Assembly (NCBI GenBank): GCA_964456395.1
Contig: CAYWAU010000001.1
Location: 1-62,482, forward strand
Direction: 5' to 3'
DNA: 62,482 nucleotides
DNA from: an uncultured Dehalococcoidaceae bacterium
GTDB taxonomy: Bacteria > Chloroflexota > Dehalococcoidia > Dehalococcoidales > RBG-16-60-22
The notes beneath the pieces were generated by a model. The model saw only the letters and a program-made list of their open reading frames with translations. It had not been told where the DNA came from and made no database searches. Below are positions 44,606 to 62,482 of this stretch, in pieces (the stretch's first letter is position 1; each line of letters begins with the position of its first letter). The translations under genes and the position numbers were made by a program.

Positions 44606-44798
44606 GTGAGCCCCATTATATAATAATATGGTGCTACAAAAATACAAAGGCTGACCGGCAATCGGTATTACCAGATGAATGGAGGTGAACGGAACAAATG
44701 TAAAAACGGGTGAAGCATCGCGCCTGACAAACAAGGGGAATTTATAAGGCCAGAAGTTAGTATCTCATTCATTGAACTTAATAAAGGAGGTAAGAATA

Positions 44799-45824: not shown

Positions 45825-45925
45825 CCTTACTAGCCAGTACGCTTAAATTTTACGATAGCGTTGCTTCGTTTGAAGGCAACCCGGAAATATCAAGCAGGCA
45901 CAGTTGCTATCAGGAGGCTGCGTAA

Positions 45926-46453: not shown

Positions 46454-46508
46454 CTCTCACCACGGCTTGTTGCTTTATAAGCTTACTACCTGGCAAATTA
46501 GGAGGGTC

Positions 46509-49065: not shown

Positions 49066-50427
49066 CTAGCCGGTCTGTCCTATATCACCGCCGTACATTT
49101 TTCCTAGCTCGCTGCGGTAATCGGGGTCAAACCAGCCGGCCCCCTGCTCCTCTATCAGGTCGGCACGGCTGGCTCTGCCTGATGGGAAGGTAGGGCTTCG
49201 CCCCAGCACGTCCGCTTGTTCCAGTGCTTCCATCTCTTCCGCTGACATACCCAGTAAAGAGCCAAACACGTATTCATTGTCTTGAGCAAAACGAGGTGCC
49301 CTTTTTTGAACAAAACTTTCCATGCCGCTGAACTTGGCCGACATCTGGCTGGCAATTGGTCTCTTACCAATCCCTTCGCCGTGGTCGATTAACTGAAAGA
49401 AACCGCGTTCAATGAGGTGAGGGTTAAGATTTACTTCTTTCATATTGAGTACGGCTCCCGATGGAACCCCGGCCTCCTGTAGAACTTGCATCACTTCAAT
49501 GTGGTCACGCTGGCAGGTCCACTCCTCAACCAGTCTGTCAAGGTCTGGCTGGTTCTGTCGCCGACTCCGGGCATCGGCAAATCTTTCGTCTCTGGCCCAC
49601 GCCGGGCCGCCAATGGCCTGGCAGAACCGCTGCCATTGCCCGTCATTCTCCACGGCGATGTTCACCCAGCTATCATCACCCTTACAGCGATAGCACCCGT
49701 GTGGTGCTGATGAAACGTGTCGGTTGCCGTCTCGCAGCTTGTCTCGCTTATTCAGAGTATACTCCATGATGATTTCCCCGACATGGCAGGCAACGGCTTC
49801 CCGGCCCGAGACATCCACGTACTGTCCCTTACCGGTCATCATGCGATAGTACAGTGCTATCATCAGGGCCGCGGCGGCATTGGCGCCGGTTACCCAATCC
49901 CCGTAGGCATAGCCTGAGAGCAGAGGCTCCCCGTCGGGGTAGCCGGTGCTATATGTCAGCCCGCTCATTCCTTCCATACCCGGTACGTACATGTAGAAAT
50001 CCCTTAACGGCCCGTAGTGCCCCAGACCACTCATGGATACCATGATTATATCCGGCCTGACCTTTTTCAGCTCTTCGTAACCCAATCCCCAGTTGCCCAT
50101 GACCCTGGGTGAGAAATTCTCGATAACAACATCACTTATCCTGACCAACTGCTTGAATAGCTCTCTGCCCTTCTCAATGCCTAGGTTGAGAGATATACCC
50201 CGTTTCCCGGCGTTCAGGGTGTGGAAAAAGCAACCGCGATTCCATGGCTCTTCTCCGGGAGTATTCTCTGGATAGACATTGGCCCGGGTATAGACGTCGG
50301 CACGCTGGACAGACTCTATCTTGATGACCTCAGCCCCCATATCAGCCAGTATCTTGGTGCTTACCGGCCCGGCGAAGACCATGGTCAGGTCAAGAACTCT
50401 TATTCCGTCTAATAATTTGTATGTCAT
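49066..50427 (-). CDS. family III CoA-transferase (longer, 453-aa form)
   Basis: IRVLDLTMVFAGPVSTKILADMGAEVIKIES, and the APHGCYRCKGDDSWVNIAV internal motif. Confidence 0.85.
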   Translation of the reverse strand: MTYKLLDGIRVLDLTMVFAGPVSTKILADMGAEVIKIESVQRADVYTRANVYPENTPGEEPWNRGCFFHTLNAGKRGISLNLGIEKGRELFKQLVRISDVVIENFSPRVMGNWGLGYEELKKVRPDIIMVSMSGLGHYGPLRDFYMYVPGMEGMSGLTYSTGYPDGEPLLSGYAYGDWVTGANAAAALMIALYYRMMTGKGQYVDVSGREAVACHVGEIIMEYTLNKRDKLRDGNRHVSSAPHGCYRCKGDDSWVNIAVENDGQWQRFCQAIGGPAWARDERFADARSRRQNQPDLDRLVEEWTCQRDHIEVMQVLQEAGVPSGAVLNMKEVNLNPHLIERGFFQLIDHGEGIGKRPIASQMSAKFSGMESFVQKRAPRFAQDNEYVFGSLLGMSAEEMEALEQADVLGRSPTFPSGRASRADLIEEQGAGWFDPDYRSELGKMYGGDIGQTG

Positions 50428-50442
50428 TCCAATTCCTCAAGA

Positions 50443-51648
50443 TTAAACAATTCCTTCTGCCTGCAACTGGGTAAGAGCCTCCCGGCTATAGCCAAGCCGA
50501 CCATATATTTCCTCGTTGTGTTCACCCAGCAGGGGGGCGCGGCACGCCTGCCATGGAGACTCATTTAGCTTGGCTGGTGCCCCGGGATAGGTGACTTCGC
50601 CCATAACCGGATGCTCGGCCCGGGCAAAGAACTCCCTCGCCTGAATCTGTTCGTCCTCCAGCAACTCTCCCGGGCTGAGGACTGGTGTGAAGGCCAGCCG
50701 GACCTGCTGGGCTTTTTTGGTTATCTCCCATTTATCATGCTCCTTGAGCCAGGGAATGATGAGGTCATCGAACTTATCCGGCGCCGCCATACGGGCACGC
50801 GGTTCGGTGAAGAGGGGGTCATCCATCAACTCCGGTTTCTCAATGAGCAAGGGGATATTGGGCGCTCCGCCTATTCCCGGCGTCAGGCTTATCCACCCAT
50901 CTTTACAGGGAACGCTGTAACCAATAGGGTAGCCATGAATGGCAAACGGATTGGTTCTTCTACTCAGCCCGATGTACGGGTATTCGGCAGCGTGCCCCAT
51001 CACCGTACTGGCAACACATCCCATCGCTGCTATATCAATGAGCGTACCACGGTTGGTGCTCTCCCGCTTGATGAGTGCCGCTACGGTAGCTATGAAGCTG
51101 AGCACACCGGTGGCGTACTCAGCCTGAAAACCGGCCTCAGCCACTGGCCGCTCGGTCGGCTTGGTGGCTGGTCGCATGGTGGACATCGCTCCACCCAGAC
51201 CGTATACCGTGAAGCCTGTGGCAGCATAGTCCCGGTAGGGTCCCGTTTGCCCGAAATATGATATTGAGGTCATTATCAGGTCAGGATTAATCTCCCTTAA
51301 AACTTCACAGGATAAACCGAGTTCGGACATTGTGCCCGGTTTGCAGTTTTCCGCCAGGACATCAGCTTCTTTAACCAGCTCTTTAAATATCCTGATTCCT
51401 TTTTCACTCTCAATGTCCAGGGTAACGCTTTTCTTGCTGGTATTGAGGTAAAAAAAGGTCCCGCTTTTTTCGTTGTCGGGTTCGTCGCCGGCGAAGGGCT
51501 CCATGCCTCTCGTGGCGTCTCCCTCTCGCGGCCGCTCAACCTTGATTACCTCGGCACCAAAATCAGCCAGCAGCTTGGTACAATAGGGCCCGGCAATCCC
51601 AGAGGTGCAGTCGACAACTCTTAAGCCGGTAAAAGCTTGTTCTGGCAT
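50443..51648 (-). CDS. family III CoA-transferase
   Basis: 401 aa. LRVVDCTSGIAGPYCTKLLADFGAEVIKVERP. Confidence 0.85.
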   Translation of the reverse strand: MPEQAFTGLRVVDCTSGIAGPYCTKLLADFGAEVIKVERPREGDATRGMEPFAGDEPDNEKSGTFFYLNTSKKSVTLDIESEKGIRIFKELVKEADVLAENCKPGTMSELGLSCEVLREINPDLIMTSISYFGQTGPYRDYAATGFTVYGLGGAMSTMRPATKPTERPVAEAGFQAEYATGVLSFIATVAALIKRESTNRGTLIDIAAMGCVASTVMGHAAEYPYIGLSRRTNPFAIHGYPIGYSVPCKDGWISLTPGIGGAPNIPLLIEKPELMDDPLFTEPRARMAAPDKFDDLIIPWLKEHDKWEITKKAQQVRLAFTPVLSPGELLEDEQIQAREFFARAEHPVMGEVTYPGAPAKLNESPWQACRAPLLGEHNEEIYGRLGYSREALTQLQAEGIV

Positions 51649-51855
51649 GTCGTCACCTTTCCTTTTTATCGCTCGCTGTGGAGCCGGTGCCGGTCAACGG
51701 CTGGAGGCTGGTGAATAGAGTGGTGCGCTGAACTATCCTCTCCGAGATACATACCTGCCTGTCCTGTGCCATTCTATCATAAAATCTCTGGCTTGATAAG
51801 GTCTCGGCCGGCTGTACGCGGCCGGGATACGCAATTATGGCAGGGCGAAAAAATA

Positions 51856-51864
51856 TGATATAAT
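51856..51864 (+). promoter_or_regulatory. candidate extended -10 element (TGATATAAT) for the SDR gene
   Basis: Read directly, ~90 nt upstream of the 51955 start. Confidence 0.3.
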
Positions 51865-51954
51865 ATCGGCGAGTTGAGACGGGGAACGAGGGGTCTAACC
51901 ACCCTGCCGTGATTCCAGGCATATTATTTCTAAAGAAAGGGAGGATAACTAACA

Positions 51955-52716
51955 ATGAGACTGGCTAACAAGGTAGCTATAATTACGGGGGCAGGTTCCG
52001 GAATAGGGAGAGCTTCGGCAACACTGTTCGCCAAGGAGGGTGCCAAGGTAGTGGTTGCTGACATAAATGACGCCGCCGGAGAGGAGACGGTAAAAGCTAT
52101 CAAGTCAGGCGGCGGCGAGGCTATTTTTGTCCATACTGATGTCTCCAAAGCTTCCGATGACGAAAACCTCGTCAAGGTAACCAGGGACAAATTCGGCAAA
52201 ATCGACATACTCTTTAACAATGCCGGTGTACCGCAGAGAAGCATGTCGATTGCGAATCTGGACGAATCGTTGTGGGACCGCATTTATGCGGTTAATGTTA
52301 AGAGTATCTTTCTGACCGCGAAATATGCCGCGCCCGTAATGAAAGAGGCGCGGGGTGGCGTTATCATCAATCTCGCCTCCATCATCGGAGTTAGACCCCG
52401 GCCGGGTAACCTCGCTTACGCCAGTTCTAAAGCTGCGGCTATTCACCTGACCAAGATATTAGCCCTGGAATTCGCCCCGGATAATATCCGGGTTAATTGC
52501 ATTAACCCGGTAGCGGCGGATACACCCATGCTGGAACAATTCTTCCCCGAGGGTGCCGACCCGGATGAACTTAAGAGGTTGACGATAGGCACGATTCCTC
52601 TGGGACGCCTGGGTAAGCCGGAGGACATCGCTTATGCGGCTTTATACCTGGCTTCTGATGAATCCACATTTGTCACCGGCTCATCCATAGATGTTGACGG
52701 AGGACGGGGAATCTAG
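51955..52716 (+). CDS. short-chain dehydrogenase/reductase (classical SDR, FabG-like)
   Basis: 253 aa. TGAGSGIG, NNAG, and the YASSKAA catalytic YxxxK motif. Confidence 0.9.
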   Translation: MRLANKVAIITGAGSGIGRASATLFAKEGAKVVVADINDAAGEETVKAIKSGGGEAIFVHTDVSKASDDENLVKVTRDKFGKIDILFNNAGVPQRSMSIANLDESLWDRIYAVNVKSIFLTAKYAAPVMKEARGGVIINLASIIGVRPRPGNLAYASSKAAAIHLTKILALEFAPDNIRVNCINPVAADTPMLEQFFPEGADPDELKRLTIGTIPLGRLGKPEDIAYAALYLASDESTFVTGSSIDVDGGRGI

Positions 52717-52804
52717 GGGATGCGACCTGCGGAATTTCTAGCTTGAGGAACTGCTCCGGGACAGATTTCAGGTGCCAGAATGTACGTGAGGAGTTAAACC
52801 GAAT

Positions 52805-54190
52805 ATGAAAGACCCCAAAAGCCCTACCCACGTAATAGCCGATTTTGTCGTCAATACCGCCTATGAGGACCTGCCTGATGCTGCCGTTCAATATGCCAAG
52901 ATGAGCATCGTTGATGGCATAGGGACATGCATAGCCGGCTCGGAAAGTCCCGCCGGCAGGATAATCACCGATTACGCCAGAGAAGGAGATAGCCGGCCTG
53001 AAGCCACGGTTATCTCCAAAGGTTTTAAAACAGGCGCTCCAGAAGCAGCCCTGGCCAACGGCACCATGATGCACGCTCTGGACTATGATGATTGTGCTGA
53101 AAACTTCCTGGGTCACCCGACCACGGTCATTCTGCCGGCTGTTTTGGCGTTGGGAGAGAGTACCGGGATATCGGGTAAAGAGGCTTTATTATCATATATC
53201 CTGGGCTACGAGGTCGGCAGCAAAATTGGTTCCGGGATGGGCTCGGCTCATTATGACGCGGGCTGGCACCCCACGTCTACTATCGGTGCCCTGGCGGCAG
53301 TGATAGCGGCGACCAGGATATTGAGGCTTGATGTTCCACAAACCAGGACGGCAATTGGTATTGCTGCCTCTTTAGCCAGCGGATTACGACAAAATTTTGG
53401 AACGATGACCAAACCTCTACACGCCGGGAACGCGGCTCGTAACGGTGTGTTCGCGGCATTGCTGGCCCAAAAGGGATTCACCTCTGACCAGGGAATATTA
53501 GAAAACCCTCTGGGTTTTGCCAGGGTATTTAGCGGGACCGTAGAAGCCGATTTAAAGAAGATGATTAGCAATTTGGGGGCTCCATTTGAGATAGTCTCCG
53601 ATGCGCCTATAATAAAACTGTACCCTTCCTGCCGCGCCACAGCCGGGTGTATTGATGCTATTCTTCATCTCGTCAGACGGCATAATATTGGTGCTGACGA
53701 CGTAGGTGAAGTGGAATGTAGAACAAGCCCGCACACTCCAACGGTATTAATTCACTCACGCCCACAAACCGCATTGGAAGGCAAATTTAGCCTTCAATAC
53801 TGCATGGCGATAGCTATTGTTGATAGAGAAGTGGGATTGGGACAATTCACGGACGACAAGGTGCAAAACGCCCAAATTCAGAAGTTAATCACCAAAGTGA
53901 GGTACACTCATCCGCCAGAGATTGGCTCGGCTTCGGCCGACTCAATGCGAGGGAGAGTTGAAGTGGCGGTAAGGCTCAAGAACGGCACCGAGTTCTCCAA
54001 ACCGGTTGAAGCGGCCAAGGGCGACCCCAGGAATCCGCTATCACAGGAGGAGATGGAATCCAAGTTCCTGGACTGTGCCAGGCTTGTGTTCTCACCACAG
54101 GATGCCAGGCGGTGCCTGGATAATATTTTGCAGCTGGAACATATCAGAGATATCTCCGAATTAATGAAACTGCTCTACAATCCGGCATGA
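52805..54190 (+). CDS. MmgE/PrpD-family protein (second copy)
   Basis: 461 aa. DGIGTCIAGSE, HALDYDD, LYPSCRAT. Confidence 0.8.
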   Translation: MKDPKSPTHVIADFVVNTAYEDLPDAAVQYAKMSIVDGIGTCIAGSESPAGRIITDYAREGDSRPEATVISKGFKTGAPEAALANGTMMHALDYDDCAENFLGHPTTVILPAVLALGESTGISGKEALLSYILGYEVGSKIGSGMGSAHYDAGWHPTSTIGALAAVIAATRILRLDVPQTRTAIGIAASLASGLRQNFGTMTKPLHAGNAARNGVFAALLAQKGFTSDQGILENPLGFARVFSGTVEADLKKMISNLGAPFEIVSDAPIIKLYPSCRATAGCIDAILHLVRRHNIGADDVGEVECRTSPHTPTVLIHSRPQTALEGKFSLQYCMAIAIVDREVGLGQFTDDKVQNAQIQKLITKVRYTHPPEIGSASADSMRGRVEVAVRLKNGTEFSKPVEAAKGDPRNPLSQEEMESKFLDCARLVFSPQDARRCLDNILQLEHIRDISELMKLLYNPA

Positions 54191-54224
54191 TGTGACCGGG
54201 TACAGGGTTAGCATTTCCTCATTT

Positions 54225-55151
54225 TTACCCTGCTTCCTCCTCAATCTCAGACTCGGGAATGCGAACCTCAATACCTCCGGCACGCTCCTCCTGGAGCAAC
54301 ATGGCAATACGGGAGTCCTTATCACCCCAGCCACGGTTCATGGCTGCCATCAGCTCCTGCAGGGTCAGGTTGGCCACAGCCATGGGAACATCATACTCAC
54401 GCCCCAGCGAGGTTGCCAGTGCCACGTCTTTTAACGCCAGATGCAACGCAAATTGGGGAGGCTCGAAATTTCCCCGGAAAACGATTTCGGGCAATATCCT
54501 GTGGAACATAAGACCCTGCCCCATACCGCCATCCCTCAGGATGCGCCATAACGCTTTGGGCTCCACACCTGCCTTAACTCCCAGCGTCAGGCACTCGGCG
54601 ACGATGGTCTGCAAGCCATAATTTATGCAATTGTGCATGAGCTTACAAATGCTGCCATTGCCGACTTTCCCGGTATATGTCATCTTATCGCCAATGGCTT
54701 TCAGTACAGGCTGGCATCGCTGAAAGACATCCTCATCTCCACCCACCATCAGCGTCAGTTTGCCCGTCCGTGCCCCCGTTGGCCTGCCGCTCACCGGCAC
54801 GTCCATTACATCGGCACCCCTTTCCTTAAATTTGTCATAAATACGGCGCGCCAGTGTCGGCGAACTGCTGGATAAGTCAATGTACACCCCGCCGGGACGT
54901 ATGCCTTCAATAATGCCGCCTTCACCCAGGGCAACTGCCTCCACTTCCTGAGGACCGGGTAAGGAGGTGAATATTATATCGCTAGCCTCAGCAACCGCTT
55001 TCGGCGAGTCAGCCCAGCAGGCGCCGGCGTCGACCAGGGTCTTGGCTGCCTCCCGCCTCAGGTCGTAAACAGTAAGCGTATAGCCGGCCTTGAGGATGTT
55101 GCTTGCCACCCCGCTTCCCATGCTACCGAGCCCGATGAAACCGATATCCAC
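54225..55151 (-). CDS. beta-hydroxyacid dehydrogenase (3-hydroxyisobutyrate / tartronate-semialdehyde reductase family)
   Basis: 308 aa. IGFIGLGSMGSGVA NAD fold, DVPVSG, and the GNGSICKLMHN catalytic Lys motif. Confidence 0.85.
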   Translation of the reverse strand: MDIGFIGLGSMGSGVASNILKAGYTLTVYDLRREAAKTLVDAGACWADSPKAVAEASDIIFTSLPGPQEVEAVALGEGGIIEGIRPGGVYIDLSSSSPTLARRIYDKFKERGADVMDVPVSGRPTGARTGKLTLMVGGDEDVFQRCQPVLKAIGDKMTYTGKVGNGSICKLMHNCINYGLQTIVAECLTLGVKAGVEPKALWRILRDGGMGQGLMFHRILPEIVFRGNFEPPQFALHLALKDVALATSLGREYDVPMAVANLTLQELMAAMNRGWGDKDSRIAMLLQEERAGGIEVRIPESEIEEEAG

Positions 55152-55234
55152 AATGCACCTCCCTTTCCAAATTTGTTTATTTTTAACTCAACTGCCCCCA
55201 ACGACTAAAATAAGTAACCGGAAAACCGCTGCTT

Positions 55235-56452
55235 TTACAGACCAAAGGCGCCGGAAATGAGCAGCTGGTCAAATTCGGTGTCGGAAATGCCCAGCAGTTC
55301 CTTGCAAACGTACTCCGTATGCTCACCCAGACAGGGAGATGGCATTCGCGGCTGGGCGGGGGTCTTTGATAACCTGGAGGGTTGACCCATGTGCGGAAAA
55401 TCGCCTATCTCTTTATGTTTTAGCACCCAGAAAAGATTTGCTTCCCGAAGTTGAGGGTCCTGATAGATATCCTCCCCCTTCTTTACCATACCAGCCGCCA
55501 CACCGGCTGCCTGCATTAGCTCCATTGTCTCCTGAGCGGAATGATTAATCGTCCATTCACCAATTAATATGTCTAATTCCTCTTCGTTTTTCTTGCGGTT
55601 AAAAAAAGTGGCGAACCTGGTATCTTCAGTCCAGGACGGGTTACCTATGACGTTACAGAAATTCTCCCAGTCCTCATCAGAGAACACCGCAATAGCGCAC
55701 CAGGAATCGTTACCCCGGCATGGGTAGGCATTATGAGGCACCGCATACGGATGCTGATTGCCGTTCCTCGTTGATTCCTCTCCGTTAGCTTCACACTCCA
55801 GAAGATATGGTCCCAGGAACTGTAAGGAGACTTCGCTCTGCGACAGGTCTATCATTTGCCCTTTACCGGTTTGGCGGCGGTATTCCAGTGCGGCAACCAG
55901 AGTGGCGATAGCAAAATGAGGGACAAAATAATCCGGATAGGCAAACATAAAAGAAAGGGGGTCCCGGTCAGCCCATCCCGTGAAATTTACAAAACCAGCC
56001 AGGGCATTTAATTGCAGGCCCAGCCCACCAAGACGGCTGAAAGGTCCTGTCTGACCTTGATTTGAAGTCCGGAGCATAATGGCATCCGGCCTGATTTTCT
56101 TCAGGTCTTCATACCCCAGACCCCAGTTCTCCATAACGCCCGGATTGAAATTCTCGGCTGTAATGTCCGCCCATGAGACCAGTTTCTTAGCTATTTCTCT
56201 CCCCTGCGGGTGTCCCAGGTCAAGACTCATGGAGTACTTGTTGGCATTCCAGTATGTGTAGAAACCCGAGCGGTTCACCCCGGGCTTATTATCCCTGTAA
56301 GGCATGGTAATCCTGAGACCTCCGGGCCTTTGTGCTGATTCGATACGAACCACGGTCGCCCCATAATCGGCCAGCGTCTTGGTAGTTAAAGGCCCGGCTA
56401 TCCACCAGGTGAAATCGGCAACCTTTATTCCTTCAAAGGGCGCTGTTGTCAT
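55235..56452 (-). CDS. family III CoA-transferase, type B (paralog of 33860-35077)
   Basis: 405 aa. PFEGIKVADF...GATVVRIES, and VPHNAYPCRGNDSWCAIAV. Confidence 0.85.
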   Translation of the reverse strand: MTTAPFEGIKVADFTWWIAGPLTTKTLADYGATVVRIESAQRPGGLRITMPYRDNKPGVNRSGFYTYWNANKYSMSLDLGHPQGREIAKKLVSWADITAENFNPGVMENWGLGYEDLKKIRPDAIMLRTSNQGQTGPFSRLGGLGLQLNALAGFVNFTGWADRDPLSFMFAYPDYFVPHFAIATLVAALEYRRQTGKGQMIDLSQSEVSLQFLGPYLLECEANGEESTRNGNQHPYAVPHNAYPCRGNDSWCAIAVFSDEDWENFCNVIGNPSWTEDTRFATFFNRKKNEEELDILIGEWTINHSAQETMELMQAAGVAAGMVKKGEDIYQDPQLREANLFWVLKHKEIGDFPHMGQPSRLSKTPAQPRMPSPCLGEHTEYVCKELLGISDTEFDQLLISGAFGL

Positions 56453-56461
56453 TCGCTCCTT

Positions 56462-57700
56462 TCAGACAACCCCGGCTTGCCTGAGCCGCATCATTTCCTC
56501 GTCAGAAATGCCCAGTTGCCGGTAAATCTCCTGATTGTGCTCACCAATAAGCGGTGGTTTACACGGCGTCCTGGAAGCCTGCTCCGACATTCTGAAGAAG
56601 GTTCCCGGGTAGGTCAGCGTCTCATTCAATTCGGGATGTGCCACCTGTATCCAGAAATCCCTTGATTGGAGCTGGGGGTCTTTCATTATATCTTTCGGAG
56701 AATATACCGGGAATATCTTGATGTCCCTTTTGAGTCCCTCCTGGTAAAGCTGAAGCTTGGTATACCTTAAAAAGAGCTGCTCGGCATATGATTCCAGCCG
56801 ATTCTGCATCTCCTGCGTGGCTACGGCTAAATCATAGCTCTCCCAATCAAATTCTTTAAGGAAGTCGTCGGCTATTCCTTCTTCGCCAATCCATCTCGCC
56901 AGCTGGCAGTTGCCCATGCTCACGCCGAGTCTGCCCCCGAAAATGACATAGGCAACAAAGCCATCCCGGCAACGCCAGATAATGCGCTGATTGTTTTTAC
57001 CGAAGCGACTGCTCAGCACGGAGCCCTGTCGTGATAGGTTAATCCTGTCCAGTTCCCAGTGAGGGATGGTATTGGTTATCGCCCAGGTGATACTTGCCTG
57101 GATAGAGACATCAACATGCTGCCCCTCTCCCGTGTTTTGGCGGTGATGATAGGCTATCATGGTAGCTGACGCAGCACTGGAGCCCCCGAGTAACCAGGAC
57201 TGAGGAAAGCTGATACGCAGCGGGGGGCGGTCTTTATAGCCCGTTATATACAACAGCCCCCCCATCGCTAACAGGGTGATATCAGAGGCTTTATAGTCCT
57301 TGTAAGGACCCCGCTGCCCGAAAGGTGTGATAGAGGTCAGGATAATAGAGGGGTTAACCGAATTGAGTGTCGAGTAACCTAACCCCAACCCCTCCATATA
57401 GCCTACCGGGAACGACTCAATTACGAAATCAGCCCCCTTAACCAACCTTTTAAAGATTTCCTTACCGTCCGCTGTCTCAATATCCAGGGTGATACCCTTC
57501 TTATTGAGATTATGAGCAAACCAGTAGAGACTTCTTTCCGGATGGGGAATGCTGTGATAAAAGGGCGGGATATTGCGGGAATGGTCACCCCCGGGCTTTT
57601 CCACCTTGATGACCTCGGCACCAAGGTCAGCCAGGATTCTACCGCACAAAAAACCTTCTTCACCCGTTAAGTCCAGGACCCGGCCGGAGAGAAGCGTCAC
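56462..57700 (-). CDS. family III CoA-transferase, type A (paralog of 32588-33835)
   Basis: 412 aa with GTG start after GGAGG. VLDLTGEEGFLCGRILADLGAEVIKVEKPGGD. Confidence 0.85.
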   Translation of the reverse strand: MTLLSGRVLDLTGEEGFLCGRILADLGAEVIKVEKPGGDHSRNIPPFYHSIPHPERSLYWFAHNLNKKGITLDIETADGKEIFKRLVKGADFVIESFPVGYMEGLGLGYSTLNSVNPSIILTSITPFGQRGPYKDYKASDITLLAMGGLLYITGYKDRPPLRISFPQSWLLGGSSAASATMIAYHHRQNTGEGQHVDVSIQASITWAITNTIPHWELDRINLSRQGSVLSSRFGKNNQRIIWRCRDGFVAYVIFGGRLGVSMGNCQLARWIGEEGIADDFLKEFDWESYDLAVATQEMQNRLESYAEQLFLRYTKLQLYQEGLKRDIKIFPVYSPKDIMKDPQLQSRDFWIQVAHPELNETLTYPGTFFRMSEQASRTPCKPPLIGEHNQEIYRQLGISDEEMMRLRQAGVV

Positions 57701-57776
57701 CTCAGGCTACCTCCAATTTTTTGGCATGTTCATTCCTCAATCTTATGTCGAAAGCGAGATACGGCATGGTGTTGGG

Positions 57777-59171
57777 TCATACCTCTTTCAAATAGCTTTT
57801 CATCAGAGCTAAGGCGGCTTTTGGCTCCGTCTGAGCCAGCAAACCGGCGGCATAGAGGATGTACTCCTCATCTACATAGAACCGGGGGTTCCTGGGCCTG
57901 AGAATATGGCGACTGGTCTCCTGAAATAACACCCTTTCCAGAATACCCCTGGGGTCCCGGGAGAAGGCTATGGGCCCACCCGTTCCGACCACGTGCCGTA
58001 CCTCGGTCAGGTCTTTTCCGCGCTGGACAGCCATCTCCCCCATAGGACCATAGACAATCTCCACCCTGCCCGCGTGCCGCTCCACGGCTACTTCCACCGC
58101 CACCGAAGCCAGCATCATGTCACCGGTGAATTGCTGTTCCGTTTGAGGAATCTGCCCGACCGCCGAAATTTCCTGGATAACACCTTCGTAACTTTCATCC
58201 GGCAGGAGTCCCCTTAGCTGAAGTTGCTCCAGCAGCGTGCCTATGTTGAGTCTTACCCCCAGGTCTCCCTCCACGGTCCTTTTTACGTAGGGCTCAGGCA
58301 GACCCCTCACCATCACATCTCCAGAAGCTGGATTGCCCCTGGCGATTGAGTGTACGTCGGTAGTGGCGCCACCGATATCCACCACGATGACATCGCCCAG
58401 CCCTTTTTGCTCCTGATAGCCTTCGGCAAGAAGCCTGGCTGCCGCCAGTACGGCCGACGGGGTGGGCATGATGATATCTTTTACTATTGCCCTGGCTTTG
58501 GCTACGCCCTTGGCTTCTATAATGTTCTTGATGAAAATGTCTCTTATTTCCCGGTTACAATGTTCTGTCTCAAGCCTGCCTATTTCCGGCATTACATTTT
58601 TGGTGAACCGGACATTGGCACTATGTGTATTGAAGATTGCCTCAATTTCATCACGCGCCGTCTTATTTCCCGCCACCAGCAGGTGAGCCCGCTCAAGGTC
58701 CAACTTGGAAAGCATACGCGCGTTGTGAATGATAACCCTTTTATCACCGCCGTCAGTTCCCCCAGCCAGCAGGATAATATCGGGGGAGATTTCCCCTATC
58801 TCACTGATTTCCTGTTCGGTAAGCTCGTACGAATAGCAACCTACAATCTTGGCGCCGGCTCCTAATGCCGCCCGGGTAGCGGCTTCGACGGTAAGCTCGG
58901 GTACAAAACCGATGGAGACTACTCGCAGACCGCCAGCCGCACTACTGCAGGCTAATGCCTCCCACTCGTCCTCATGACTTGTGTTTACCCCGGCATCAAG
59001 CTCCTCAAGGGCTTCTTTGAGACCGATAGTAATATCTTCTTCAACTGTAGATGGAGCCTGGGACCTTGAAATTATCCTTCCTCTATCTAAATCTACGGCG
59101 ACAACCTTGGTAAACGTACTTCCAAAATCGATTAGAAATCTGATGCTGCCCATTAACACAACCTTTAACAA
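57777..59171 (-). CDS. glmL: GlmL/MutL-like protein (glutamate mutase accessory/reactivase-type, ASKHA-like)
   Basis: 464 aa. FLIDFGSTFTKV N-terminus and VVDIGGATTDVHS. Lies adjacent to the glmS/glmE-like genes. Start is TTG 59171 or ATG 59153. Confidence 0.7.
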   Translation of the reverse strand: MLKVVLMGSIRFLIDFGSTFTKVVAVDLDRGRIISRSQAPSTVEEDITIGLKEALEELDAGVNTSHEDEWEALACSSAAGGLRVVSIGFVPELTVEAATRAALGAGAKIVGCYSYELTEQEISEIGEISPDIILLAGGTDGGDKRVIIHNARMLSKLDLERAHLLVAGNKTARDEIEAIFNTHSANVRFTKNVMPEIGRLETEHCNREIRDIFIKNIIEAKGVAKARAIVKDIIMPTPSAVLAAARLLAEGYQEQKGLGDVIVVDIGGATTDVHSIARGNPASGDVMVRGLPEPYVKRTVEGDLGVRLNIGTLLEQLQLRGLLPDESYEGVIQEISAVGQIPQTEQQFTGDMMLASVAVEVAVERHAGRVEIVYGPMGEMAVQRGKDLTEVRHVVGTGGPIAFSRDPRGILERVLFQETSRHILRPRNPRFYVDEEYILYAAGLLAQTEPKAALALMKSYLKEV

Positions 59172-59219
59172 TGAATCGACTATTGCTTATTCAGATATCA
59201 TGACGGTTTGTAGCGCCGG

Positions 59220-59645
59220 CTAAACCTTACCCTTTGCCTTCAAATCATCTTCCAGGTCAGCTATAACTGCTGCCATATCTACTTCGGGGGGGTAAACTCT
59301 ATCGAACCCCATAGCCTCAAATTTCTGTTTGTCATCCTCAAAGTTATGCCGGCCCACCGCCAGATTACCGCCGAGGTAAAGGAGCACATCCCCGAGGCCA
59401 GATTCTGTGCATTTATCTTTGAATCCTGCTAAATCGAACTCCGCCATGCCGTAGAGCGAACTTACAAAAATGGCATCAGCCGCTGTTTCTTGAGCTACTT
59501 TGATGAATTCCTCTGCCGGCGTCAGTCCTCCGAGTTCGACAACCTTGTATCCCTGTTCCATCAAAAAACGAGATAGAAGCTTGATGCCGATAACATGGGA
59601 ATCCTGCCCTATCGTTCCTGTAACTATAGTTGCTTCTTTTGCCAT
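59220..59645 (-). CDS. glmS: B12-binding small subunit of a glutamate-mutase-type enzyme (GlmS/MutS-like)
   Basis: 141 aa. DSHVIG (DxHxxG base-off/His-on motif), SSLYG, and LYLGGN. Collinear with clostridial GlmS. Confidence 0.85.
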   Translation of the reverse strand: MAKEATIVTGTIGQDSHVIGIKLLSRFLMEQGYKVVELGGLTPAEEFIKVAQETAADAIFVSSLYGMAEFDLAGFKDKCTESGLGDVLLYLGGNLAVGRHNFEDDKQKFEAMGFDRVYPPEVDMAAVIADLEDDLKAKGKV

Positions 59646-59690
59646 CTTAATAACCCCTCTTTATTGAAAACTATCCTGGAAGGCGTATTT

Positions 59691-61160
59691 TCAGGAGGTC
59701 GATTCCCCTTTTATTTTACCCTTACTGAATGCCCAGAAATCCTGAATGACCACGCTAAGGTCCATCTTCCGCCCCTCCGCCTTTTCCCGTTCCGCCACCT
59801 TTTCACGGTGAAATTCTTTTACCTCTTCCGGAATAGGCAGGTTGCCGAAATCAAGGTAGCGGCAGGCTCCTTTATTATCCCTGATGCCGAGTACCTTTGA
59901 TTTAAGATTCACATTGCTGGCGATTGGGGAATCAATTGCTCCGGTCTGCACTCCCTTCTCATAGCCAACAGCCACATCGCCGTCCCCAAGCTCCAGAATC
60001 CTGTCCATTATTGCCCTGACTTCGAGCTCGGTGATTCTTTCCTCAATTCTTGCCTCTTCCTGGTCAATGGTAAAATTCTGAGCCCGGACGACATCAAAAA
60101 TAAATTTAGCTGCGCGGTAACTTACCGCGTGGGCTTCCTTTGCCGGGATGCCGGCCGCTTCGTCAATTGTCCTGACATACACGCCTTCTCCTTCGGCCAA
60201 CGCCCCGACCATCGCACTATAACCGAGAAAACCGAAAGACATACCCATATCCTGCGGATGAGGGAATAACGGCACCTGGTCCAGAAAGAGACCGGGAACG
60301 ATAACATCTTTGTAGCCGAATTTGTCGAGATACTCCCTGGTCAGTTTTCGTAATGTCCGTGCCCAGGCAATGTCCTGCAACATATGACCGTACATCGAAA
60401 TACGGGGTATGACGCTTTTCACACCCTGCTCGGCGGCCAGCATAGCAACGACGATAACGCCGGCTATGTCGACACTCATGGGAAACTGGAGGTTGGAATT
60501 TATCCCGTCAATATCGGTGGCTATGGTGACTCCCCTGTCAGCATAATAGCCTATTAATCGCTGTATATATTGATATTCTTCAATACACTCGGCTGCGGTG
60601 GGCTTCTTTTCATACCAGCCGAAGGTTATTATAGGGTCAACGAGAGCCGCCGTTACACCTGATGCGAAAGCAATTTCGGCCATCAGCTTGATACCGCCAA
60701 TATTGGTCAGCCTCTGGTTTAATGCCGCCTCGGTATTCTCAACGACCTTTCGTGTATTCTTCACGCCATGGATAACGGTGGGATACCCGTTTAACTTCGG
60801 CTGACCAGTTTTATTGCTCTCCTCCAACCCTCGCTGTGCCTTATCATATTGTCCCAGACGACAGTAGCTGTCCGGCGTTAACGGGATAACGGGCAAACCC
60901 GCTTCCACCAGCGCCTTGTTAAGTTCAATCTCCTGCTCCAGGATTGGAGTTCCCGCCCTTGGGAAAACAACGGTCTTGCCTTCCTGATGCAGTTTCTGTA
61001 TCACTTTGGTGAAGTTCTTGTGTTCAGGCAGACTCTTTTGATATTCCACCGCCTCCTCAAAGTCGACCTCTTTGCCGGTTGCCCATCTGGAAAGTACCTC
61101 TTTTCTTTCCCTGAGAAACCTTTCCTCGTCCCATTTCTTGTTTCTAACTGTTATCTCCAT
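59691..61160 (-). CDS. large (epsilon) subunit of a glutamate-mutase-family B12 mutase (GlmE-like, divergent active site)
   Basis: 489 aa, collinear with clostridial GlmE (NKKW..E.F...R.EVL..W.TGKEVD..EAV.Y; PRAG; LNG.P...GVK; AAEQGVK; RYL.FGN.P). The Glu171 region reads AALVDP instead of SNEGGG. Confidence 0.75.
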   Translation of the reverse strand: MEITVRNKKWDEERFLRERKEVLSRWATGKEVDFEEAVEYQKSLPEHKNFTKVIQKLHQEGKTVVFPRAGTPILEQEIELNKALVEAGLPVIPLTPDSYCRLGQYDKAQRGLEESNKTGQPKLNGYPTVIHGVKNTRKVVENTEAALNQRLTNIGGIKLMAEIAFASGVTAALVDPIITFGWYEKKPTAAECIEEYQYIQRLIGYYADRGVTIATDIDGINSNLQFPMSVDIAGVIVVAMLAAEQGVKSVIPRISMYGHMLQDIAWARTLRKLTREYLDKFGYKDVIVPGLFLDQVPLFPHPQDMGMSFGFLGYSAMVGALAEGEGVYVRTIDEAAGIPAKEAHAVSYRAAKFIFDVVRAQNFTIDQEEARIEERITELEVRAIMDRILELGDGDVAVGYEKGVQTGAIDSPIASNVNLKSKVLGIRDNKGACRYLDFGNLPIPEEVKEFHREKVAEREKAEGRKMDLSVVIQDFWAFSKGKIKGESTS

Positions 61161-61221
61161 TTCACCCCTTTGATAATGTTAGAGAATATGGCCTTCCGCC
61201 GATAGGTATCGTCCCCTTAAG

Positions 61222-61294
61222 TGGAGCCGGGGGGATTCGAACCCCCTACCTCCTGCGTGCAAAGCAGGCGTTCTCCCAACTGAACTACGGCCCC
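61222..61294 (-). tRNA. tRNA-Ala (anticodon UGC)
   Basis: The reverse complement folds as a cloverleaf. Acceptor stem GGGGCCG/CGGCUCC has a G3:U70 pair. Anticodon loop is UUUGCAC and the T-loop is GGGGGUUCGAAUCCCCC. Discriminator is A and CCA is not encoded. Confidence 0.95.
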
Positions 61295-61423
61295 AGATTG
61301 CTTTAAAAATTATAGCATATTTGAAATTACTTTTTATATTCACCATCACCTGACTCTGTTCGCAATAGAGGCGTCTGGCCTACTAAAGCTAGAAAACCGC
61401 AACTTTTGGGTAAATTTGAAAAG

Positions 61424-61474
61424 AATCAGGGTGTCAAGACACTAGGTCAACCGACACCCTGATTTTATTATTTT
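61424..61474. terminator. 12-bp perfect inverted repeat hairpin with T-rich flanks on both strands (bidirectional intrinsic terminator candidate)
   Basis: AATCAGGGTGTC-17 nt-GACACCCTGATT, followed by TTATTATTTT on the + strand and CTTTTCAAATTT on the - strand. Lies downstream of the 61577-62257 gene. Confidence 0.55.
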
Positions 61475-61576
61475 AAGGTAAAATATCAACAATGTGACAA
61501 AATGCAATTTCGCCACATTTAAGCGATCATGAATTTAATTAAGCAAATTGGGCGTTTGTTAACTAAGCTACTTATT

Positions 61577-62257
61577 TTAGCTTACACATGGTGAGGCAAG
61601 ATATTCAGCCAGCTGCTCAAATTTCCCCCCATCTCCCCCCGAGACAAGCTCCCCAAAGTAAGCATTAACCTTTTCTCGGTCCTTGACCTGTTTCACTATG
61701 ATGTCTTTGGAAAGATAGGGAAATATGTTATGATAGCTCCCCATAAAGAGAACCCCGGTTTCTCCTTCCTTTAGAGTTTCATCGATTGTTTTGGCTACGA
61801 ATTTATCCCTTTCCTCTGTCAACTGGTTCTTACGAAGTCTATATTTGGTAGAGGTGATGTTTTTCTCTGCAACCGATCTAGAGCGAGTAATTCCAGAGAT
61901 ATATTCATACTCCTCTTTAAGGAGAGAGGGATTCTCGGTTTTTCTTATCTCGGCGCCCCTGACCATCAGGCTCAGGACAATTTGGTGATTCTTGCTCCCG
62001 CGTTTTGCAGCCTCCTCAACAATTTTCCTGCCCAGTGCACCATCCGCCGGGAGTCCATCCTGATAAACTTTCATGGTGGAAGCGTCAACGGTAGCAAAAT
62101 AATCAGCTATACTTTCCCAAAACTTAACCACACTATCTTTATGTTTAGCCCACCTCTCCTCCCCAAACAGAGAAGCACTTTTGCTGTCGATGGCAGCTGC
62201 CTCACTCCCCAGGTCAGGTTCCATATGGATGACGGGTACAAAAAGGAGTTTCCTCAT
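61577..62257 (-). CDS. hypothetical protein
   Basis: 226-aa ORF with protein-like composition. Its ATG overlaps the stop of the upstream AAA ATPase gene (ATGA). No family recognised. Confidence 0.5.
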
Positions 62258-62482
62258 GGCTGTTCATTAGCCCTCCCTGTCGTTTCAAGGGCTCCACTGA
62301 AATGCCGGACATTAATCTTGAATTTGGTCAAGTCCTTCTTCTCTTGGTTTATGAATTCCCTTATCGCCAGCATAGAAGCCCTCTTTGAAACGGCCTCTAT
62401 ATCAGCACCAACCATACCTTCGGTTCCCTTAGCTAGGGACTCAAGGTCGACATCATCAGCCAAAGGCTTACCTTCGGTATGA
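62254..62482 (-). CDS. 3' end of a CDC48/VCP-like AAA+ ATPase gene (5' part outside window)
   Basis: The frame is open to the window edge. ...[37 protein letters not shown]... is the AAA lid-domain pattern. The listed start at 62463 is an internal TTG. Confidence 0.7.

Follow-up and report, generated by a model that had tools for sequence, protein, structure and literature searches.

The glutamate-mutase-like genes of an uncultured Dehalococcoidales bacterium from a salt marsh probably belong to a conserved catabolic module, in which a B12 mutase of the GlmE/GlmS/GlmL type, other than glutamate mutase, would act on a C5-dicarboxylate devoid of an amino group and the product would be activated with CoA. 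The window, that is, the whole stretch of DNA analysed (62,482 nucleotides), is the entire contig C1 of an assembly that is 77.9% complete. No published description of such a module was found in the literature. The features of the locus are the following.

61462-61489, minus strand: highest-scoring sigma-70-like promoter match in the region, TTGATA-16-TAAAAT (10/12, consensus scan), upstream of the tRNA
61221-61294, minus strand: tRNA-Ala(TGC), 60 nt upstream of glmE (ARAGORN; Rfam tRNA 70.3 bits)
59691-61160, minus strand: GlmE-like protein, 489 aa (PF06368 421.7 bits; TIGR01503 391.7 bits)
59220-59645, minus strand: GlmS-like B12-binding subunit, 141 aa (NF002612 185 bits, cut-off 110)
57777-59171, minus strand: GlmL/MutL-type accessory protein, 464 aa (NF040745 573.6 bits, cut-off 475; PF13941 546.7 bits)
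56462-57700, minus strand: CoAT_A, family III CoA-transferase, 412 aa (PF02515 262.7 bits)
55235-56452, minus strand: CoAT_B, family III CoA-transferase, 405 aa (PF02515 346.2 bits)
54225-55151, minus strand: HIBADH-family (beta-hydroxyacid) dehydrogenase, 308 aa (PF03446 and PF14833)
52805-54190, plus strand: PrpD1, PrpD/MmgE-family protein, 461 aa (PF03972 and PF19305)
51955-52716, plus strand: SDR oxidoreductase, 253 aa, 88 nt upstream of PrpD1 (PF13561, PF00106)
49066-51648, minus strand: two more family III CoA-transferases, 401 and 453 aa (PF02515 291.9 and 347.2 bits)
47861-49033, minus strand: MaoC2, hot-dog hydratase, 390 aa (PF13452 and PF01575)
43441-47810, plus strand: TRAP transporter with two DctP, one DctQ and one DctM (PF03480 twice, PF04290, PF06808), a possible organic-acid uptake system

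The seven genes of a preliminary description, from the tRNA to the HIBADH gene, are all on the minus strand, and their content, order, coordinates and gaps of 9-83 nt were borne out (60, 45, 48, 76, 9 and 83 nt from the tRNA onward). The HIBADH gene lies 34 nt from the convergent PrpD1 gene. No minus-strand terminator-like sites were found from the tRNA to the end of the HIBADH gene. The promoter call upstream of the tRNA is weak, since shuffled sequences gave 8.8 ± 3.0 promoter-like sites and the region itself has 13. Every gene junction over 53.4-61.2 kb is spanned by short Logan contigs, which come from four salt-marsh runs; the CoAT_B/HIBADH junction is spanned by a contig of run X2. Metagenome depth rises to ~46-284 in bin 60842-61258. 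As the Logan contigs end within the tRNA, the join to 61295-62482 is without independent support.

The GlmS-like subunit matched PDB 1i9c_A with 132 bits, and its motif GQDSHVIG aligns to GSDCHAVG of the solved S subunit. The GlmL/MutL-type protein is presumed to be a mutase chaperone or reactivase. The GlmE-like subunit barely passed TIGR01503, by a margin of 1.6 bits (cut-off 390.1), and it matched PDB 6h9e_B with 351 bits. Public annotation labels these proteins methylaspartate mutase.

According to PMC10947579, R66, R149 and E171 of glutamate mutase bind the glycyl part of glutamate, and R100 and Y177 bind its acrylate part. The window GlmE shares with that enzyme the three-arginine claw (Arg68, Arg101 and Arg150, corresponding to R66, R100 and R149) and E330 (Glu334), but it differs at the two remaining positions, where E171 is replaced by Leu173 and Y177 by Thr179 in a stretch aligned without gaps. 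The altered active site noted in the preliminary description was thus confirmed. Asp175, two residues past the E171 position, could in principle reach the amino group of a substrate.

In the GlmE tree, the window sequence falls within a clade of 48 rows (SH-like support 100, branch 0.57), which is distinct from the canonical clade of 9 rows. E leads in all the rows where the order could be determined, and S or L comes first in 0/48. The non-clostridial E-S-L order is, therefore, a property of this E-first clade. Its members retain the claw and the adenosyl-binding Glu, with Glu171 and Tyr177 replaced in general; the claw reads RRR in 47 of the 48 rows and is broken in other paralogue clades. 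Seventy-four columns common to at least 8 of the 9 canonical sequences are changed in 90% or more of the E-first clade, and these cluster at 151-155, 173-182, 215-228, 253-256, 290-300 and 325-328. The loss of Glu171 is not universal for the module, because one sub-clade with shared synteny (L046, L047, L048 and L050) retains Glu in that column (TTxEGG). From these residues and the tree, we judge the window GlmE to be an adenosylcobalamin mutase subunit, and not that of a glutamate mutase.

Canonical loci carry S-L-E or S-E followed by methylaspartase in six of nine cases, in agreement with the clostridial order given earlier, whereas methylaspartase adjoins the mutase in 0/48 loci of the E-first clade. 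The preliminary description had found no methylaspartase in the window; this was confirmed, and searches of the 78% of the genome that is assembled found none either. The PF07476 profile gave a single sub-threshold partial match in the whole assembly (23 bits, contig C158, 432-aa frame), a search that likewise matches 11 of 14 control genomes, and BLASTP with a verified methylaspartase from L105 (MAAL_C 351.7 bits) gave no match in any contig. In five relatives that carry the cluster and are 92-96% complete, methylaspartase was not found; the search gave nothing beyond partial matches of 18-27 bits, in frames of 400-445 aa.

The adjacent transferases, described earlier as a type A/type B pair, are indeed such a pair and correspond one-to-one to the two subunits of benzylsuccinate CoA-transferase (PDB 9FN0). 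CoAT_A matched 9fn0_A best (217.6 bits vs 94.6 for 9fn0_B), and CoAT_B matched 9fn0_B best (279.7 bits vs 92.4 for 9fn0_A). The Asp of an S-D-I motif is present in CoAT_A, and CoAT_B has Gly at that position, an asymmetry that holds in 8/8 A-type and 8/8 B-type aligned sequences. Neither protein reached an NCBIfam equivalog. Of the analogy drawn earlier to the methylaspartate cycle, the enzyme families stand, but the mesaconate CoA-transferase equivalog scored 172-193 bits, far below its cut-off of 700. By these comparisons, the pair is predicted to be a BbsEF-type heteromeric family III CoA-transferase. With ~11 A-type and ~13 B-type paralogues in this genome, adjacency in this genome alone means little. 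In the B-subunit tree, the B subunits linked to a mutase fall into two clades, each with support of 100: one joins the window to L137 and L138, and the other holds the remaining 14 linked sequences. The GlmE tree shows the same main division, and the unlinked paralogues of the genome lie outside both B-subunit clades. Another Dehalococcoidia genome, L053, has a pair homologous to the transferases at 49066-51648, which there adjoins a GlmE paralogue and a homologue of MaoC2. In relatives the mutase is flanked by up to three CoA-transferase systems (family I, 49066-type and A/B).

The conserved core consists of E-S-(L) and the A/B pair, and was observed in Chloroflexota (Dehalococcoidales), Desulfobacteraceae and Thermodesulfobacteriota. 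GlmL is present in most E-first loci and missing from C43, L044 and L064. Contig C43 belongs to the same genome as the window and carries a second E-S-A-B module, with a TRAP transporter directly after the A/B pair. Of the 32 clade loci with at least 5 kb downstream, 16 have the A/B pair after the mutase, which makes CoA activation instead of deamination, as proposed earlier, a reasonable inference. The other half lack the pair (nine of these have a glycyl radical enzyme or activase), so that CoA activation is not constant in the clade.

Two partners that the preliminary description had left out recur beside the core, namely an IDS-epimerase/IRG1-like protein of the PrpD family and a hydratase of the MaoC or crotonase type. 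A PrpD-family gene is nearby in 11 of the 22 clade rows with both flanks. PrpD1 matched IDS-epimerase (229.5 bits) and IRG1, the cis-aconitate decarboxylase (205.8 bits), best in the PDB, and its orthologue (52% identity) is directly upstream of glmE in L137, L138 and L146; it is a conserved partner of the window-type GlmE. The MaoC2 orthologue (69% identity) lies within the L137 and L138 operons between glmL and the A/B pair, and MaoC2 gave no informative PDB or NCBIfam match. In these closest metagenome relatives the genes form one tight operon, with the PrpD1-like gene upstream of glmE and MaoC2 and A/B (75-78% identity) downstream. In L043, L060, L062 and L064, too, an SDR gene immediately precedes a PrpD-like gene. 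For three partners of the mutase, the nearest solved relatives (benzylsuccinate CoA-transferase 9FN0, IDS-epimerase and IRG1) are enzymes that act on or make 2-substituted succinates (benzylsuccinate, iminodisuccinate and itaconate, respectively).

Conservation did not extend to the whole seven-gene arrangement described earlier. The HIBADH gene is beside the mutase in 1/48 clade loci, namely the window, and the tRNA-Ala is upstream of glmE in 0/23 related loci; both are best read as lineage additions outside the conserved module. HIBADH reached no NCBIfam equivalog. Its best PDB match was tartronate semialdehyde reductase 1vpd (192.6 bits), ahead of 2-(hydroxymethyl)glutarate dehydrogenase 3CKY (173.7 bits), and the nicotinate analogy, which rested mainly on this non-conserved gene, was not supported.

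We propose that the mutase would bind a free C5-dicarboxylate, having no alpha-amino group, by the three-arginine claw and would interconvert a 2-substituted glutarate and the matching 3-methyl-substituted succinate. The benzylsuccinate-CoA-transferase-type heteromer would make the CoA thioester of one of the acids, the donor probably being succinyl-CoA, and the thioester would then be processed by the MaoC or crotonase hydratase. The PrpD-family protein may take the place that methylaspartase occupies in the clostridial operon and would epimerise, dehydrate or isomerise the substituted succinate. The candidate pairs, in descending order of preference for this Leu173/Thr179 pocket, are 2-methyleneglutarate/3-methylitaconate, 2-hydroxyglutarate/3-methylmalate and glutarate/methylsuccinate. 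We infer that the substrate is a free acid, and likewise in which order the steps run, which compound donates CoA and what PrpD1 does. As the core has no lyase, acyl-CoA dehydrogenase or thiolase, the pathway is open-ended.

A nicotinate-type route is a specific sub-case of this scheme: a non-orthologous 2-methyleneglutarate mutase would work with HIBADH as 2-(hydroxymethyl)glutarate dehydrogenase, the PrpD-family protein would dehydrate 2-(hydroxymethyl)glutarate, and 3-methylitaconate would be CoA-activated and hydrated. A hydrophobic Leu at the amino-binding Glu position would suit a methylene group, 3CKY is the second-best solved relative of HIBADH, and the solved relatives of PrpD1 include IRG1, which makes a methylene-succinate; radical chemistry is also favourable for a migrating vinyl group. 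However, we regard this route as unlikely, given the single HIBADH-bearing locus with its better match to tartronate semialdehyde reductase, the variable loop of the clade, and the lack, in the Pfam annotation of the window's ORFs, of any enamidase, nicotinate dehydrogenase, serine-dehydratase-type Hmd, Mii isomerase, dimethylmalate dehydratase or lyase. That the enzyme is an ordinary glutamate mutase, with methylaspartase encoded in the unassembled 22% or replaced by a non-orthologous route (transamination or CoA activation of methylaspartate), is quite unlikely. In its favour, TIGR01503 is passed barely and the GlmS and GlmL equivalogs clearly, which also speaks against our preferred reading; the claw, E330 and B12 His motif are intact, Asp175 is close to the E171 position, a sister sub-clade has Glu there, and the assembly is incomplete. 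Against a glutamate mutase are the replacement of both E171 and Y177 with remodelling of six active-site loops, the separation from the canonical clade with support of 100, the failure to find methylaspartase beside any of the 48 mutases or in the five more complete relatives, and the two paralogous modules of a small genome, which are hard to fit to a single glutamate route.

CoA transfer might instead come first, with the mutase rearranging an acyl-CoA in the manner of methylmalonyl-CoA-type mutases. The reaction order is not readable from gene order, and the several CoA-transferase systems around the mutase in relatives would fit this sequence of events. We consider it very unlikely, as a thioester at either end should free one arginine, yet nearly all members of the E-first clade keep all three carboxylate-binding arginines, and it is in other paralogue clades that the claw is broken; to our knowledge, the known acyl-CoA mutases are all in the methylmalonyl-CoA mutase family. 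Finally, the neighbourhood could be fortuitous or an assembly artefact amid paralogues of CoA-transferases, PrpD proteins and dehydrogenases: ~24 BbsEF-like, 16 AOR-like and 10 PrpD-family genes are present in 2.1 Mb, neighbours vary even among GlmE relatives 85-89% identical (PrpD-E-S-L-CoA-transferase-MaoC-A-B, or hydantoinase-E-S-OYE-SDR-SDR), and the Logan contigs break at the tRNA. Yet three phyla share the E-S-(L)-A-B arrangement, the B subunits linked to a mutase make up two monophyletic groups that parallel the GlmE tree, and contigs of independent salt-marsh runs span every junction within 53.4-61.2 kb. A chance or chimeric origin, the latter a concern raised in the preliminary description, is thus highly improbable and is largely refuted for the core.

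The combination of a GlmE without the amino-holding residues and a benzylsuccinate-type CoA-transferase, with no methylaspartase, suggests that a dicarboxylic acid different from glutamate is probably rearranged by the conserved module. The loop of the E-first clade differs between its sub-clades, which argues for several substrates.

The mutase operon lies on the minus strand, and its features are as follows.

61221-61294, minus strand: tRNA-Ala(TGC)
59691-61160, minus strand: GlmE-like gene (glutamate-mutase-like E protein)
59220-59645, minus strand: GlmS (S protein)
57777-59171, minus strand: GlmL (accessory protein)
56462-57700, minus strand: family III CoA-transferase A (CoAT_A)
55235-56452, minus strand: family III CoA-transferase B (CoAT_B)
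54225-55151, minus strand: HIBADH-family (beta-hydroxyacid) dehydrogenase

From the tRNA onward, the intergenic gaps are 60, 45, 48, 76, 9 and 83 nt. The gene calls and the computed gaps agree with those of the preliminary description, and therefore its coordinates, gene families and gaps are correct; overall, what it had observed was confirmed, and its interpretation was only partly supported. No terminator-like site was found on the minus strand within the operon stretch, and the best promoter-like site, from a consensus scan only, is located upstream of the tRNA (61462-61489). A riboswitch or another known RNA upstream of glmE was rejected as Rfam shows the tRNA alone.

The window is contig C1 in its entirety (62,482 bp), from an assembly of 2.12 Mb in 283 contigs (77.9% complete, 3.3% contamination). 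For the mutase gene, Chloroflexota and Dehalococcoidales MAGs provide the closest relatives that are named. DNA of the window is present in salt-marsh metagenome runs, one of which, X1, may be the sample from which the window was assembled. We placed Logan contigs of four such runs (X1-X4) on positions 50000-62482, and observed that every gene junction from PrpD1, a PrpD-family gene convergent with the operon, to GlmE was spanned:

PrpD1/HIBADH junction: X1 record 3 and X4 record 27
HIBADH/B junction: X2 record 11
B/A junction: X1 record 5 and X4 record 28
A/GlmL junction: X2 record 14
GlmL/GlmS/GlmE junctions: X1 record 7 and X3 record 22

Among the contigs listed, those coming from the glmE side stop at 61218-61232, within the tRNA, and thus the join to 61295-62482 is without independent support. 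The depth over tRNA-Ala goes up from ∼4 to ∼46-284, with many loose ends toward other contexts. At 61415-61474, ∼120 nt upstream of tRNA-Ala, a second stretch is flanked by loose contig ends on either side and overlaps the promoter-like site. This second stretch could represent a tRNA leader or promoter that is conserved, or else a repeat that is shared.

The mutase has the fold family and the subunit set of the clostridial glutamate mutases (C. cochlearium and C. tetanomorphum; 1CCW, 1I9C, 6H9E). GlmE scored 351 bits against the solved C. cochlearium chain 6h9e_B, with an ungapped alignment from Glu160 to Tyr181, and 421.7 bits against PF06368; its TIGR01503 score exceeds the cut-off by a margin of 1.6 bits only (391.7 versus 390.1). 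GlmS scored 132 bits against 1i9c_A and is above the cut-off of NF002612, and GlmL is above that of the equivalog NF040745. The B12 motif of GlmS is intact (GQDSHVIG aligned with GSDCHAVG), which is the Asp-x-His-x-x-Gly motif of the base-off/His-on type. In glutamate mutase, Glu171 is hydrogen-bonded to the substrate amino group. According to an account of that enzyme (PMC10947579), R66, R149 and E171 hold the glycyl moiety of the substrate, and R100 and Y177 hold the acrylate part. The window's GlmE keeps the arginine claw formed by R66, R100 and R149 (as Arg68, Arg101 and Arg150), and also Glu334, corresponding to E330. However, the ungapped alignment places Leu173 at E171 and Thr179 at Y177, in agreement with the altered active site of the preliminary description; Glu and Tyr are present at these columns in all nine canonical sequences.

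We constructed a FastTree phylogeny of GlmE-like proteins (n = 93) encoded in the retrieved loci, leaving out rows shorter than 420 aa and merging identical proteins; the rows are not independent samples. The canonical enzymes, which include the solved and the methylaspartase-linked ones, form a clade of nine rows with the loop G[WF]T[SA]xEG-G[GA]ISYN[IL]PY and with S or L ahead of E. The window's GlmE belongs to a separate clade of 48 rows (SH-like support 100, branch 0.57), in which E is placed ahead of S or L wherever the order was determinable, and which we refer to as the E-first clade. The E-S-L order, which the preliminary description had set against the clostridial S-L-E order, is therefore a property of the clade. 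The claw is RRR in 47 of these 48 rows, and the E171-Y177 loop varies among the sub-clades. Seventy-four columns common to at least eight of the nine canonical sequences differ in at least 90% of the E-first clade; they are concentrated in six stretches, and six pocket loops are remodelled relative to the clostridial enzyme. One sub-clade having the same synteny (TTxEGG) retains Glu at the E171 column.

The window's GlmE was searched against 1.84 billion proteins; counted as cluster representatives, 842 matched at E ≤ 1e-3, of which 182 also passed E ≤ 1e-30. Among the best 150 representatives, 109 were full length (the 41 shorter than 420 aa were dropped): 24 of them have the claw together with E171 and Y177, 25 have the claw only and ∼60 have a broken claw, proportions that are only indicative since the ranking is by similarity to the window's GlmE. 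A broken claw, QRN, is also found in the GlmE-like protein of two cultured Gordonibacter sp. isolates (L110 and L111), which falls in a divergent paralogue clade; the gene order there is GlmL, PrpD-like protein, FAD_binding_2 flavoprotein, GlmE-like protein, GlmS and lactate-permease-family protein. Gordonibacter is a cultured carrier of this paralogue clade that would be usable for experiments.

Methylaspartase, the partner of the clostridial mutase, was not found with this operon. A BLASTP search with the verified methylaspartase of locus L105 (351.7 bits) found nothing in any contig of the 77.9%-complete assembly. The Pfam model MAAL_C gave a single sub-threshold partial match (23 bits, in a 432-aa frame), and it gave matches in 11 of 14 control genomes as well. 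Methylaspartase was also not found in five cluster-carrying family-level relatives that are 92-96% complete, where only partial matches of 18-27 bits in frames of 400-445 aa were obtained. It is located beside the mutase in none of the 48 E-first rows versus six of the nine canonical rows. The downstream side of the operon is wholly within the contig, and therefore a methylaspartase of the same operon does not lie just outside the window; the gene might still be encoded in the missing 22% of the genome. Judged by these sequence features, the window's mutase is not a canonical glutamate mutase: the enzyme is predicted to work like one, yet it fails on E171/Y177, on its clade and on methylaspartase.

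We surveyed the gene neighbourhoods in related genome regions, 80 named genome loci and 16 metagenome contigs; from the 80 named loci, the maps and the tree took L056-L116 plus two actinomycete loci as the outgroup. Loci were annotated by our own ORF calling and BLASTP against window-derived and Pfam-checked references (E ≤ 1e-8), so that unlabelled ORFs in the maps may conceal relevant families. GlmE matches at E ≤ 1e-30 are present in 14 of the 36 other genera of the family that were sampled and in five of the 201 genomes sampled from the class, the window's genome included, with up to seven paralogues in some. The A/B pair of CoA-transferases is located downstream of the mutase in 16 of the 32 E-first rows having at least 5 kb of downstream sequence; these 16 are from Dehalococcoidales, from Desulfobacteraceae (L059) and from Thermodesulfobacteriota (L076). 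Where the pair is missing, the mutase is accompanied by a glycyl radical enzyme or its activase (nine rows, from Firmicutes, Actinomycetota and Synergistaceae), by hydantoinase/OYE/SDR genes (four) or by none of these (three). A PrpD-family gene is near the mutase in 11 of the 22 rows with both flanks available, and aldehyde:ferredoxin oxidoreductase (AOR) genes are recurrent in the Dehalococcoidales loci. The HIBADH gene, however, is beside the mutase in one of the 48 rows, the window itself, and tRNA-Ala in none of the 23 related loci. Thus, the concern that the seven-gene arrangement might be confined to this contig splits: the core is conserved, and only this population has the full set with HIBADH and the tRNA.

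Among the metagenome contigs, GlmE of the L137-L144 set is 83-89% identical to the window's. L137 and L138 carry PrpD1 (52%), E, S, L, an acetyl-CoA-hydrolase-type transferase, the hot-dog hydratase MaoC2 (69%; 47861-49033 in the window), A (75%) and B (77-78%), and L144 has the order E-S-L-A-B. In L139-L143, a hydantoinase gene, E and S are followed by an OYE-type reductase and/or two SDRs. A hydantoinase/oxoprolinase A gene is directly upstream of GlmE in L136 and L139-L143 (GlmE 87-89% identical to the window's), two hydantoinase/oxoprolinase B genes are further upstream in L140 and L141, and L141 has an SMP-30-type lactonase. L139 and L141 also have a second GlmE (60% identical) on the opposite strand.

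The two transferases of the operon match one-to-one the subunits of BbsEF, the succinyl-CoA:(R)-benzylsuccinate CoA-transferase (9FN0). CoAT_A scored 217.6 bits against chain A and 94.6 against chain B, and CoAT_B scored 279.7 bits against chain B and 92.4 against chain A; the proposed type A/type B pair is thereby borne out. As in BbsEF, a heteromer of two family III paralogues, the pair is asymmetric: all eight A-type proteins aligned have the Asp of an S-D-[IM] motif, by analogy with formyl-CoA transferase the putative catalytic nucleophile, all eight B-type proteins have Gly at this position, and the chains of 9FN0 differ alike. Unlike BbsEF, the identity to which is only moderate, the pair is in an operon without bbsG, bbsCD, bbsAB or benzylsuccinate synthase, and no acyl-CoA dehydrogenase, BbsCD or BbsAB homologue was found in that operon. 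By analogy with BbsEF, a 2-substituted succinate is a plausible substrate of the pair.

The genome has ∼11 A-type and 13 B-type genes in about a dozen such pairs (BLASTP labels), so adjacency within this one genome counts for little. Among 25 B subunits placed in a tree, the mutase-linked ones form two clades with support of 100, one of the window, L137 and L138, and the other of 14 further sequences, in parallel with the main division of the GlmE tree. The unlinked paralogues, all from the window's genome, are outside both clades; the B subunits of L137 and L138 were read as mutase-linked with glmE six genes away. Two extra family III transferases (49066-51648) have no Asp at the A-type Asp column in a MAFFT alignment that is uncertain there. 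The window encodes another BbsEF-like pair (A/B, 415 and 405 aa) at 32588-40132, along with two acyl-CoA dehydrogenases, a crotonase, an AMP-ligase and an SCP-x-type thiolase; the thiolase scored 85.6 bits against the BbsB model, far from the cut-off of 750. Together, these genes resemble a bbs-like system that would degrade a substituted succinate by beta-oxidation.

Among the other partners, PrpD1 (52805-54190) has its closest solved relatives in IDS-epimerase (2HP0/2HP3; 229.5 bits) and the Bacillus IRG1/cis-aconitate decarboxylase (205.8 bits) of the MmgE/PrpD family, and 2-methylcitrate dehydratase is absent among its 10 solved matches at E ≤ 1e-10. Unlike these two enzymes, for which we know of no described linkage to a B12 mutase, PrpD1 is linked to one and reaches no equivalog; indeed, none of the accessory proteins reached an NCBIfam equivalog. 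The solved relatives of MaoC2 were uninformative (best 27.7 bits). A lyase in the cluster was rejected, as HpcH-family genes occur only on two other contigs of the genome, C5 and C70, the latter one adjoining a PrpD-like gene. The assembly (2.1 Mb) has many paralogues of such families (16 AOR-like, 10 PrpD-family and nine OYE-like genes by BLASTP labels). On a further contig, C117 (949-5236), a family III CoA-transferase and an HIBADH paralogue (41% to the window's) are found with a convergent small B12-binding-domain protein (26% to GlmS) that adjoins an unknown protein of 542 aa; here too, HIBADH and CoA-transferase genes accompany one for a B12-domain protein.

The preliminary description had drawn analogies with the haloarchaeal methylaspartate cycle and with nicotinate fermentation, and both stand at the level of enzyme families and not beyond it. 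The methylaspartate cycle consists of glutamate mutase, methylaspartase, succinyl-CoA:mesaconate CoA-transferase and mesaconyl-CoA hydratase. The window has a similar succession of families, namely a Glm-type mutase, a family III CoA-transferase and a hot-dog hydratase, but no methylaspartase, the hydratase is without an equivalog and the transferase is a BbsEF-type heteromer. The mesaconate CoA-transferase equivalog of the Haloarcula cycle, NF041294, was not reached (scores of 172.1 and 192.6 bits; cut-off 700). The nicotinate fermentation of Eubacterium barkeri employs 2-(hydroxymethyl)glutarate dehydrogenase and a B12-dependent 2-methyleneglutarate mutase. The window resembles it in having a B12 mutase, a putative non-amino C5-dicarboxylate substrate and an adjoining HIBADH-family dehydrogenase. 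However, the best solved relative of the HIBADH protein is tartronate semialdehyde reductase (192.6 bits) and 2-(hydroxymethyl)glutarate dehydrogenase (3CKY) comes second (173.7 bits); the gene is confined to the window's lineage, and none of the other genes of the nicotinate pathway was seen among the Pfam-annotated ORFs of the window. It is chiefly on this non-conserved gene that the nicotinate analogy is built. The E-first clade includes fused E+S forms of ∼640 aa, which in architecture are like the 2-methyleneglutarate mutase MgmA of E. barkeri.

The same genome has a second mutase module on contig C43 (134-12117, minus strand), the GlmE of which is 61% identical to the window's. The order there is family I CoA-transferase (582 aa), family III transferase, E, S, A, B and TRAP DctPQM; the module is without GlmL, and its GlmE has the loop TAAGKSP with a Lys adjoining the E171 column. 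The solved relatives of the TRAP binding protein were weak (best 71 bits) and gave no substrate hint. A 290-aa protein encoded at 134-1006 of C43 has a Cys-rich C-terminus (CHECPNPMC) and is 70% identical to that at 10134-11006 of L137; it has no Pfam or PDB match and is present in only these two of the compared loci.

A sister group within the same GlmE clade (L065, L069, L077, L085, L081, L082, L075 and L079), from Actinomycetota, Gracilibacteraceae, Syntrophomonas, Synergistaceae, Oscillospiraceae and Peptococcaceae, has a glycyl radical enzyme of 836-883 aa and its activase in place of the CoA-transferases. The fuller loci also carry GlmL, a PrpD-like gene and a transporter of the MFS or TRAP type, and some additionally have genes for Fe-ADH, AOR and an OYE-type reductase. 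It is unusual for one operon to combine a glycyl radical enzyme with a B12 radical enzyme. The glycyl radical enzyme was considered as an X-succinate synthase, and this was rejected: it scored 232-271 bits to TutD/MasD versus ∼370 to hydroxyproline/glycerol dehydratases, with no NCBIfam equivalog.

What the mutase acts on can be approached from these observations. The conserved claw argues for a free dicarboxylate substrate with the geometry of glutamate, and the loss of both E171 and Y177 argues for a C2 without an amino group in case of the window's enzyme. The Glu retained in the TTxEGG sub-clade goes against extending a simple 'no amino group' rule to the whole clade. The reaction is presumably of the same kind as that of glutamate mutase, a 1,2 carbon-skeleton shift on a C5-dicarboxylate. 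We propose that a 2-substituted glutarate would be converted to a 2-substituted 3-methylsuccinate, which the A/B transferase would activate; PrpD1 might catalyse an epimerisation, dehydration or isomerisation, and the CoA ester would be hydrated by MaoC2 or a crotonase. For three of the partners, the solved relatives use or form 2-substituted succinates, namely benzylsuccinate, iminodisuccinate and itaconate; this fits activation of the branched acid by A/B, a PrpD1 step and hydration. The equilibria of such rearrangements favour the linear acids, so the route may equally well run from the branched to the linear acid and on into a breakdown of the glutaryl-CoA type.

The candidate pairs would be 2-methyleneglutarate/3-methylitaconate, 2-hydroxyglutarate/3-methylmalate and glutarate/methylsuccinate. 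Of these, 2-hydroxyglutarate is reportedly a slow substrate of glutamate mutase, and benzylsuccinate CoA-transferase is said to accept methylsuccinate. We consider it more likely than not that the operon encodes a Glm-type B12 mutase with a putative non-amino C5-dicarboxylate substrate coupled to CoA activation; any one of the substrate pairs, taken singly, is much less probable than this general statement.

A broader reading, which we put forward tentatively and as a whole rate somewhat below an even chance, combines the mutase with its partners across the clade. The E-first clade would comprise undescribed adenosylcobalamin mutases for non-amino dicarboxylic acids, with loop variants for each substrate. 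The mutase, the BbsEF-type transferase, the IDS-epimerase/IRG1-like PrpD protein and the hydratase would constitute an unrecognised anaerobic route, widespread in subsurface Chloroflexota and Desulfobacterota, that interconverts branched and linear C5-dicarboxylates (methylitaconate, methylmalate and methylsuccinate with methyleneglutarate, hydroxyglutarate and glutarate) and leads them into CoA-dependent breakdown. Firmicutes, Actinomycetota and Synergistota would couple the mutase and PrpD to an uncharacterised glycyl radical enzyme, that is, two radical enzymes in one pathway. No paper describing a mutase and CoA-transferase module was found in the open-access literature searched.

Public databases name these proteins 'methylaspartate mutase'. 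Metabolic reconstructions of Dehalococcoidia, Desulfobacterota, Syntrophorhabdus and Bathyarchaeia that rely on this name would therefore deduce glutamate fermentation, though methylaspartase was not found in any genome checked. To our knowledge, glutamate and 2-methyleneglutarate are the only known substrates of mutases of this chemistry acting on free dicarboxylates. Should the substrate be identified, B12 chemistry would gain a new reaction and pathway engineering a new carbon-skeleton rearrangement, and the many BbsEF-like and PrpD-like paralogues of sediment bacteria would be given a role.
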